A stretch of DNA of 64,000 bases from Thermoanaerobaculia bacterium (GTDB taxonomy: Bacteria > Acidobacteriota > Thermoanaerobaculia > Gp7-AA8): contig DASWNW010000012.1 in the NCBI GenBank assembly GCA_036399015.1, forward strand, positions 2,996 through 66,995. The letters run 5' to 3'. Shown here one piece after another: positions 26,218-27,056 of this stretch; position 1 is the first letter of the stretch; the number at the start of each line of letters is the position of its first letter. Below the pieces are notes generated by a model. It worked only from the letters and a program-made list of their open reading frames with translations, did not search any database and was not told the DNA's origin. A program made the translations under genes and the position numbers.

Positions 26218-26310
26218 CGTTGCCGGTTGCCGGTTGCCCGTTGCCGGAGGACGTCGCGCGTAGCGCGTAGCGCGTTGGCCGGGCCTTGTCCCGTCCGCGT
26301 GCGCCCGGCG

Positions 26311-26635
26311 CACCATGGTTTGACGGCGGCGCCTGCCGCGGCGTCGCAGCAGCACTATGGTTGCGCGGCAGGGTTTGCCGCATTTGGGGCAGAGGTTGCC
26401 ATCGCGCGGCGTCGCAACCATGGTTCGTCGCCGGTGCCTGCCGCGCGGCCCCGCGGAACCATGGTTCTCGGCGGCCGCAACCATGGTTCTTCGCGCGGCG
26501 TTGCCCCCATCCGGACACGCAACCATGGTGTTGGCGCAGTGTCCGCCACATTGTGGCGAAGGTTGCCGCGCTCGCGCAGCCGAACCATGGTTCGCCGGCG
26601 GCGCCCGCCGCGACAGTTCCGCGAAACTATGGTTC
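26311..26635. repeat. Irregular array of 8 copies of the palindrome (GC)AACCATGGTT(CG), each followed by a GC-rich motif (cgccggtgcctgccgcgcgg-like)
   Basis: Copies at 26311, 26354, 26415, 26457, 26478, 26520, 26583, 26626; spacing 21-64 bp; non-coding convergent intergenic region. Confidence 0.75.
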
Positions 26636-26654
26636 CGCGCGTAACGTGCGCTAC

Positions 26655-27056
26655 TACTCGAAGAGGGTGACCTTCCGGTCGTTGCGTGTTGCGAGTAGCG
26701 CGTTGCCCGGGCCTCGTTGCCCGGACGGAAGGTGGTCACCAGGCGAGACTGCCCGGGCAACTCGCTACGCGTCACGCGAAACCATTCGCCTTTCGGTGAC
26801 CGTTGCCGGTTGCTGGAGGACCTTGCGAGTAGCGCGTTGCCCGGGCCTCGTTGCCCGGACGGAAGGTGGTCGCTCAGGCGGAAACTGCCCGGGCAACTCG
26901 CTACGCGTCACGCGAAACCATTCACCTTTCGGTGACCGTTGCCGGTTGCCGGAGGACCTTGCGAGTAGCACGTTGCCGGGCCTCGTCGCCCGGACGGAAG
27001 GTGGTCGCTCAGGCGAGACTGCCCGGGCAACTCGCCACACGCAACGCGGCTACTGG
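26655..27056. repeat. Three tandem ~135-bp copies of a REP-like hairpin unit (gcgagtagcgcgttgcccgggc ... gcccgggcaactcgctacgcg)
   Basis: Units at ~26655-26790, 26791-26925, 26926-27056, ~90% identical; same core as family B elements. Confidence 0.85.

Follow-up and report, generated by a model that had tools for sequence, protein, structure and literature searches.

A helically spaced array of short palindromes in an intergenic island of a Thermoanaerobaculia chromosome

An island of 840 bp (positions 26218-27056), located between two convergent genes of a Thermoanaerobaculia (Acidobacteriota) chromosome, was found to be real and non-coding and is composed of two unrelated parts: a phased array of short palindromes (26311-26634, minus strand) and a set of triplicated hairpins (26681-27048). 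Positions refer to the window, which is the whole stretch of 64 kb of DNA that was analyzed. Based upon motif scanning, spacing and a unit HMM, the array consists of eight AACCATGGTT-type sites distributed over 15 slots of approximately 20.9 bp. It is tentatively regarded as a helically phased protein-binding array, present here as an orphan copy, with both the binding and its cooperativity being presumed.

The island is flanked on the left by an ORF encoding a lipoprotein-like product of 144 aa (25783-26217, plus strand; GC3 0.93), which has a signal peptide and Cys but belongs to no Pfam family, and on the right by a gene for a family-2 glycosyltransferase (GT2) of 235 aa (27057-27764, or 27797 as an alternative upper boundary; minus strand). 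The GC content of the island is 0.65-0.72. Its GC3 was 0.66-0.71 whichever of the six frames was read, whereas the flanking genes reach 0.93-0.96, and a Pfam search with its two longest ORFs gave no match; on these two grounds the island was judged to be non-coding, in agreement with the original prediction of a space with no credible ORF between the lipoprotein and GT2 genes. A promoter and terminator scan of the island gave nothing, and no promoter-like site was seen in or beside it. The island sequence was 100% identical in two assemblies (JGI, ENA) and a third contig (Logan) was identical across 492 bp, ending inside the island at 26709, which argues that the island is not an assembly artifact.

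GT2 homologs carry Thermoanaerobaculia (Acidobacteriota) names in their sources, and the genes of the window are core chromosomal ones, including those for AcrB, PEP carboxylase, Ku, PBP1, alpha-2-macroglobulin, a GGDEF-EAL protein, citrate synthase, DnaK/DnaJ/HrcA, LigA and IMPDH. None of the rep, par, integrase, transposase, recombinase or cas genes were identified in the Pfam annotation of the 64-kb window. A gene for a ParE-family toxin was noted approximately 5.5 kb from the island (32216-32742; L120 16434-16960), behind an ORF of 72 aa that lacks a Pfam match and presumably encodes the antitoxin. A CIRCE-like inverted repeat (tGGCACTC-N9-GAGTGCCa) is found at the start of hrcA (40539-40562), and a 21-nt tandem repeat at 40641-40741 is coding, specifying ERFDRID heptads of a small coiled-coil protein which starts at 40641.

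The eight sites of the array start at positions 26311, 26353, 26416, 26457, 26479, 26521, 26583 and 26625. Eight exact palindromes had been claimed; in fact four are exact (26416, 26457, 26479 and 26583), three carry one mismatch (26311, CACCATGGTT; 26521, AACCATGGTG; 26625, AACTATGGTT) and one carries two (26353, CACTATGGTT). Even so, the four exact copies in 64 kb compare with 0.01 expected, and allowing one mismatch seven copies were observed against 0.25 expected, all of them within 26311-26634. A search for the motif elsewhere, which had been proposed earlier as a check, revealed no copy with up to one mismatch outside the array in the 64-kb window. The motif core contains an NcoI site (CCATGG) which is neither avoided nor enriched outside the island (16 observed, 15.5 expected).

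The start-to-start distances are 42, 63, 41, 22, 42, 62 and 42 bp, corresponding to 2, 3, 2, 1, 2, 3 and 2 steps of 20.9 bp. The spacing, originally described as irregular (21-64 bp), is therefore a series of multiples of approximately 21 bp, with a phase coherence (R) of 0.99 that was reached by none of 20,000 random spacing sets. Within the 15 slots of about 21 bp the palindromes alternate with GC-rich slots, which often contain either a GGTTGCC half-site or a further small palindrome (GCCGCGGC, GCCGCGCGGC). A similar GC-rich tail had been reported after each site; such tails are present but their likeness is only loose. The orientation that is canonical for the family described below (AACCATGGTTGC...) lies on the minus strand, and two of the sites spell GAACCATGGTTC.

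In four relatives (80-87% nucleotide identity) the gene order is kept, and the position of the island is occupied by 0-97 bp with no motif. L123 has a plain hairpin of 77 bp there and L127 has 97 bp, while in L125 and L126 the GT2 gene directly adjoins DUF2071. The homology of the window to L123 ends exactly at both stop codons, and no AACCATGGTT was found in 13-21 kb of each relative (approximately 75 kb altogether). Based on these short spacers lacking the motif, the 840-bp island is considered to be lineage-specific and, to judge from the sequences compared, it takes the place of a plain spacer of no more than 97 bp.

The right part of the island contains a tandem repeat with a period of 136 (26689-27035; 2.6 copies, 94% matches by TRF) that forms three hairpins with arms of approximately 32 nt, 81-90% complementary, and a folding z-score of -5.1. 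Three tandem hairpin units of 135 bp had been predicted here, and apart from the period this was correct. All three copies are on the plus strand: copy 1 at 26681-26782 (arms 26681-26712 and 26751-26782, 38-nt loop), copy 2 at 26815-26918 (arms about 26822-26846 and 26887-26911) and copy 3 at 26951-27048 (arms about 26958-26982 and 27021-27045). An orphan left arm, homologous to those of the 136-bp units, precedes the array at 26219-26291 (plus strand). It was identified by TRF and by a family match with three mismatches at 26260-26284, and is made up of (GTTGCCG)x4, (CGTAGCG)x3 and TTGGCCGGGC.

Matches to the left arm GTTGCG(A/T)GTAGCGCGTTGCCCGGGC and to its complement occupy at least seven loci in the window, the island among them, when up to six mismatches over 25 nt are allowed in the 64 kb; none are expected. 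Copies of this hairpin family (GCCCGGGC core) lie at 13513-13582, 15678-15702, 21571-21640, 46408-46477, 55635-55659 and 61090-61114, with arm pairs starting at 13513/13558, 21571/21616 and 46408/46453. No copy was seen in the four relatives at 80-87% identity, which marks the family as species-specific. This REP-like hairpin, which would be a terminator-type stem-loop of gene ends, has been triplicated locally to give the three 136-bp units. Each unit carries a copy of the last bases of the lipoprotein gene and GTTGCCG heptamers; a few bases from the 3' ends of both genes were part of the duplicated unit. At 26656-26680 (plus strand) relics of the two ends abut, ctactcgaagag resembling the GT2 end (11/12) and ggtgaccttccggt the lipoprotein end (13/14), which suggests that the convergent spacer as a whole was serially duplicated in tandem. 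A placement of the array between surviving hairpin arms was also considered and rejected, as the complementarity of the orphan left arm to the sequence immediately past the array was matched by 159 of 500 shuffles. No RAYT gene is present in the 64-kb window. The reading of the island as an expansion of REP elements is thus borne out for the 136-bp hairpins, with their seven or more loci, and not for the palindrome, which in the 64 kb is confined to the island.

Long hairpins of another kind, in which tandem heptamers are followed by their complement, e.g. (TGGTTGC)x10 ... (GGCAACC)n, occupy many intergenic spacers of the window (1733-1863, 12137-12221, 21496-21702, 24878-24962, 28399-28476, 59023-59113 and 61082-61196). 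Heptamer arrays number 3.3 per 10 kb in the window and 0-4.3 in the relatives. The junction of GCAACCA with TGGTTGC in such a hairpin would spell a 14-bp palindrome found in the array, which hints at a possible origin. A nonamer hairpin repeat, (GTTCCTCGG)x8 ... (CCGAGGAAC)x6, lies at 6321-6470 in frame inside the PEP carboxylase ORF (5145-8165) and encodes ...PRSSSGSSGSSGSSGSSGSSGSS...EEPRGTPRTRGTERNRGT...; the same nonamers are found at 29485-29523, 30682-30726 and 53545-53645.

Using pattern scans and protein-anchored look-ups, five other GC-rich arrays with the same directional motif (AACCATGGTTGCnGTTCC) and 21-bp stepping were identified: L047, L202, L201, L174 and L177. Identical duplicates exist for L047 (metagenome locus L183) and L202 (L203). 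Two of the five originate from Thermoanaerobaculia MAGs and three from unclassified GC-rich metagenome contigs; L047 is from a Thermoanaerobaculia MAG, L201 is from NCBI MAG assembly GCA_036674805.1, and L174 and L177 are short contigs from metagenomes that carry no taxonomic label. These arrays have 11-14 sites each, at spacings of 22, 42/43, 63/64, 84/85 and 105/106 bp, and the best-fitting period is 21.1 bp. From 65 sites in common orientation the 18-nt directional consensus AACCATGGTT GC.GTtCC was derived, with a weaker TGCGCA-type element one slot past the motif. The 21-bp stepping, this strand-directional motif and the lineage-specific nature of the island were all absent from the original prediction.

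A unit HMM, built without the window sequence, recovered the five other arrays, and its only real matches in the 64 kb were to the array of the island. The best three were on the minus strand and matched at 35-38 of 42 positions (E = 0.0018, 0.0046 and 0.07). The remaining window units match only the palindrome of the 42-nt consensus, their second slots being GCCGCGGC-type palindromes and not of the TGCGCA type. The window array has AACCATGGTT(GC) at multiples of approximately 21 bp, eight sites (at least eight being the lower limit for the family) and a non-coding location. On sequence grounds it is assigned to the family as a divergent member, canonical on the minus strand.

A scan of a genome collection with a two-site pattern returned, among the matches listed, mostly unrelated 21-27-bp tandem repeats of other phyla, only L047 being relevant. 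No array of the family was present among 2.9 M viral contigs, which were searched with a phage origin in mind. In the literature searched the motif was found only in cloning primers and no paper joins Thermoanaerobaculia to tandem repeats. The phased array family appears to be undescribed, yet it resembles known kinds of element. Regular tandem arrays of AACCATGGTT with a period of 21-27 bp also occur in Bacteroidota, Chloroflexota and a methanogen-related archaeon (L038, L109, L054, L025, L077, L151, L173 and others), in searches that were biased to the motif. In Cupriavidus sp. D384 (L064 3802-3859) three AACCATGGTT sites 24 bp apart are located directly upstream of an XRE gene. A palindromic element of approximately 180 nt, common to L174 (727-902) and L201 (6342-6515) at 76-82% identity and found in both orientations, lies just past sixA in the former and just past an XRE gene in the latter; it represents a further family of dispersed hairpins in genomes that bear the arrays.

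Homologous arrays can be paired unit by unit (L047/L202, L174/L201, L177/L201 and L177/L174). They are 72-80% identical across 500-730 nt (600-730 nt for L174, L201 and L177), with gains and losses of whole units. Sites were defined in one sequence only and identity was read in its partner. Identity between homologous arrays amounted to 91-97% in the palindrome and to 58-77% in the remainder of the unit (four comparisons, Fisher p ranging from 6e-4 to 1e-12), a contrast which is possibly inflated by the tendency of aligners to anchor on palindromes. The identities at the ten palindrome positions were 95, 95, 98, 92, 98, 100, 78, 100, 100 and 80%, with secondary peaks in GCnGT and values of approximately 60-70% farther out. 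Since the non-motif columns are themselves 77% identical (L174 vs L201), the correspondence between units is considered real despite the anchoring. Units of the same order in homologous arrays are more alike than neighbors within one array, and thus they are not homogenized in the manner of a fast VNTR. With alignment anchoring as a caveat, these identities indicate that the motif is under purifying selection, and the arrays offer a clean natural example of selection on a 10-bp motif within an otherwise drifting minisatellite. Variants with a single mismatch are unevenly distributed, 15 falling in the right half of the palindrome and three in the left, with eight cases of G7>A against one of C4>T.

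The genes next to the arrays were compared. L047 encodes an 83-aa XRE-family protein (Pfam HTH_3, E = 4e-14) whose gene, reading away from the array, begins 67 bp from the first site. The same layout is found in L202, with an XRE protein 89% identical to that of L047. Homology between these two loci covers exactly the XRE gene and the array (5481-6318), both outer flanks being unrelated, and this restriction points to a portable block of two parts. An XRE gene unrelated to that of L047 lies approximately 160 bp past the array in L177; this second link was rejected as a general rule, since three homologs of the L177 gene have a LexA-like gene upstream and no array. L201 has an L047-type XRE gene with its array 2.9 kb off, and L206 has one with no array within 3.8 kb. 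No gene is shared downstream of the arrays, the proteins encoded downstream in L047, L202 and L201 being non-homologous, and neither parA nor parB was found beside the arrays of these three loci. No XRE-like ORF is present in the 64-kb window. Among the L177-type XRE homologs, one (L212 60-1465) is followed, with a 4-base overlap, by a gene for a P-loop ATPase (GPNGSGKSG...), and in L213/L214 a gene for a LexA-like S24 peptidase lies ahead of the XRE gene. This cassette, which is unrelated to the arrays, may be defense-type or SOS-linked.

Protein binding was among the functions originally proposed for the island, and for the palindrome part it is the reading favored here, on account of the phasing, the selection and the XRE link seen elsewhere. 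Direct repeats of AACCATGGTT followed by GCnGTTCC at multiples of about 21 bp, i.e. two helical turns, would place all copies on the same side of the DNA. The array would then act as a landing pad with many sites, along which a sequence-specific protein could assemble cooperatively on one face of the duplex. The candidate binders are small XRE-family HTH regulators, the only candidates seen, because one XRE gene has been inherited jointly with its array elsewhere. Given that there is no XRE gene in the 64 kb and that the window array is placed between two gene ends, it is considered an orphan. If bound, it would probably be a titration site, a roadblock or an insulator and not the operator of a promoter, and any such role of the window copy is one that we infer.

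Several observations weigh against a protein-binding role. The window lacks any XRE, Par, Rep or recombinase gene in its 64 kb, and its units match the family model weakly. Stepped spacing would also follow simply from the duplication in tandem of a 21/42-bp unit. The asymmetry of the motif (15 vs 3 variants) is unexpected for a simple symmetric dimer, and a palindrome of 10 bp is short for a classical HTH dimer. As for XRE proteins as the binders, the XRE genes of L201 and L206 have no adjoining array, and the link of L177 is absent in its three homologs.

A broader proposal, which we regard as speculative and rather doubtful, is that Thermoanaerobaculia chromosomes carry dedicated iteron- or centromere-like arrays, in which 8-14 directional AACCATGGTTGCnGTTCC sites, held in a 21-bp register, nucleate a one-faced nucleoprotein filament of a small XRE-type (or other) protein. 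Under this proposal the XRE gene and array would constitute a portable module, and orphan arrays would titrate the protein, insulate or organize the chromosome. Should the arrays indeed serve as landing pads for a protein, plasmid iterons and centromeres would have an equivalent on the chromosome, in an acidobacterial class that has received little study and has hardly any cultured members.

The strongest competitor of the protein-binding reading, possible though not probable, is a selfish or neutral dispersed minisatellite resembling MIRU or BOX elements, in which a 21/42-bp tandem block is copied to new sites with no benefit to the cell. The motif would be a mark for mobilizing or recombination machinery, and the window copy a recent functionless insertion. 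The island is indeed missing from each of the four relatives sampled, the spacer that contains the window copy was already inclined to duplicate, and the period may reflect nothing but an origin by tandem duplication. The homologous arrays L174, L201 and L177 adjoin different genes (sixA, a Tricorn-like protease gene and an XRE gene, respectively), which suggests that the block is mobile or resides in rearrangement-prone DNA. In addition, contigs often end at the arrays; together with the species-specific REP-like hairpins the arrays break short-read assemblies, and many related contigs terminate there. What this explanation accommodates poorly is the selection, centered on 10 bp in every unit, and the order of units, which is stable between species with no homogenization, unlike a fast-evolving VNTR. 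Moreover, none of the arrays has a transposase, integrase or RAYT gene nearby, and neither target-site duplications nor terminal repeats were observed.

An element acting at the level of RNA is considered unlikely. The array would be transcribed from its non-canonical strand (plus in the window), as part of the 3' UTR of the lipoprotein gene in the window and, at the other loci, of the 5' leader of the XRE gene or another gene. The AACCAUGGUU copies, being self-complementary, would base-pair among themselves or would soak up an RNA-binding protein as the CsrB/RsmZ sponges do. This strand is the sense strand of the next downstream gene in L047/L202, L177 and L201, and of the upstream gene in the window. 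The commonest variant, read on it as C4>U, keeps a G-U pair (8 cases vs 1 for the mirror image), although the C>T bias may be purely mutational. The folding z-scores (-2.4 and -3.7) are modest. E. coli provides a precedent in REP325/naRNA4, a REP/BIME cluster that is transcribed and has a role in the nucleoid (PMC4550694). A structured ncRNA had been among the original suggestions; the window and five other arrays gave no match in Rfam 15 at gathering or permissive thresholds, and the consensus fold of 36 units contained only trivial palindrome-to-palindrome pairing with no covarying internal helix, so that no conserved structure within the unit supports this suggestion. The 21-bp phasing is not needed for a role as RNA, and no promoter-like site was found in or beside the island.

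The remaining explanations (a CRISPR-like array, a hidden protein-coding gene, a cluster of LexA boxes, a restriction-site or assembly artifact) have hardly any credibility: the spacing roughly recalls repeat plus spacer, but the repeats are degenerate (4/8 exact), the "spacers" share a consensus, the spacing is 22-63 bp and cas genes are absent, as the original prediction of a non-CRISPR array held; long ORFs cross the island, but GC3 is flat across the frames, and no reading frame would survive unit lengths of 41/43/62/64; the two sites reading GAACCATGGTTC recall the LexA box (GAAC-N4-GTTC), which fits only 2/8 sites, the family consensus having GTTG on the right side; the NcoI site of the motif core occurs at expectation outside the island; and the identical assemblies, with the third contig matching as far as its end, rule out misassembly.

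Among known systems, MIRU-VNTR loci vary in copy number between strains and have near-identical units. The arrays share with them the character of GC-rich intergenic minisatellites with units of approximately 40-100 bp and several loci per genome; they differ in that the order of units is kept between species and the units have diverged, only a motif of 10-18 bp remaining constant. L047, L202 and L177, where a short site of dyad symmetry immediately precedes a small HTH_3 gene, recall XRE/Cro-CI-type operators, as do the unrelated sites before the XRE gene in Cupriavidus L064. Such operators have 2-3 sites; here 8-14 sites extend over 300-800 bp, and the window array has no XRE gene or promoter beside it.

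The 136-bp hairpins are ordinary REP-like elements. They are imperfect stem-loop palindromes with dispersed extragenic copies, located like REP/BIME units at gene 3' ends, present at at least seven loci and amplified locally. AACCATGGTT differs from REP/BIME in not being dispersed, either in the 64-kb window or in approximately 75 kb of the relatives, in forming no hairpin of its own (10 bp, no loop) and in having no RAYT gene in view.

The iterons of theta plasmids and the control arrays P1 incA and F incC consist of a directional motif of 17-22 bp repeated at about 21-22 bp, and arrays of this type can also be situated at a distance from the origin, where they serve in titration or handcuffing. 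The arrays described here have in common with iterons a directional 18-nt motif in direct orientation, a period of 20.9-21.1 bp or multiples of it, and helical phase. They differ from iteron origins in having no rep gene, DnaA boxes or AT-rich unwinding element, their neighbors being core chromosomal genes. In the sopC locus of the F plasmid a 43-bp unit is directly repeated 12 times, and SopB binds the 16-bp inverted repeat that each unit contains (PMC3177203). Unlike sopC, the arrays are chromosomal and adjoin no parA/parB (sopAB) operon, their palindrome is 10 bp and not 16, units of 21, 63, 84 and 105 bp are interspersed, and GC is approximately 70%. They nevertheless have the tandem units with a palindromic site that are typical of ParB/SopB-type centromeres, and as in sopC these are direct units of 42-43 bp, each with one short palindrome and a less constrained remainder, with all 8-14 sites in helical phase.
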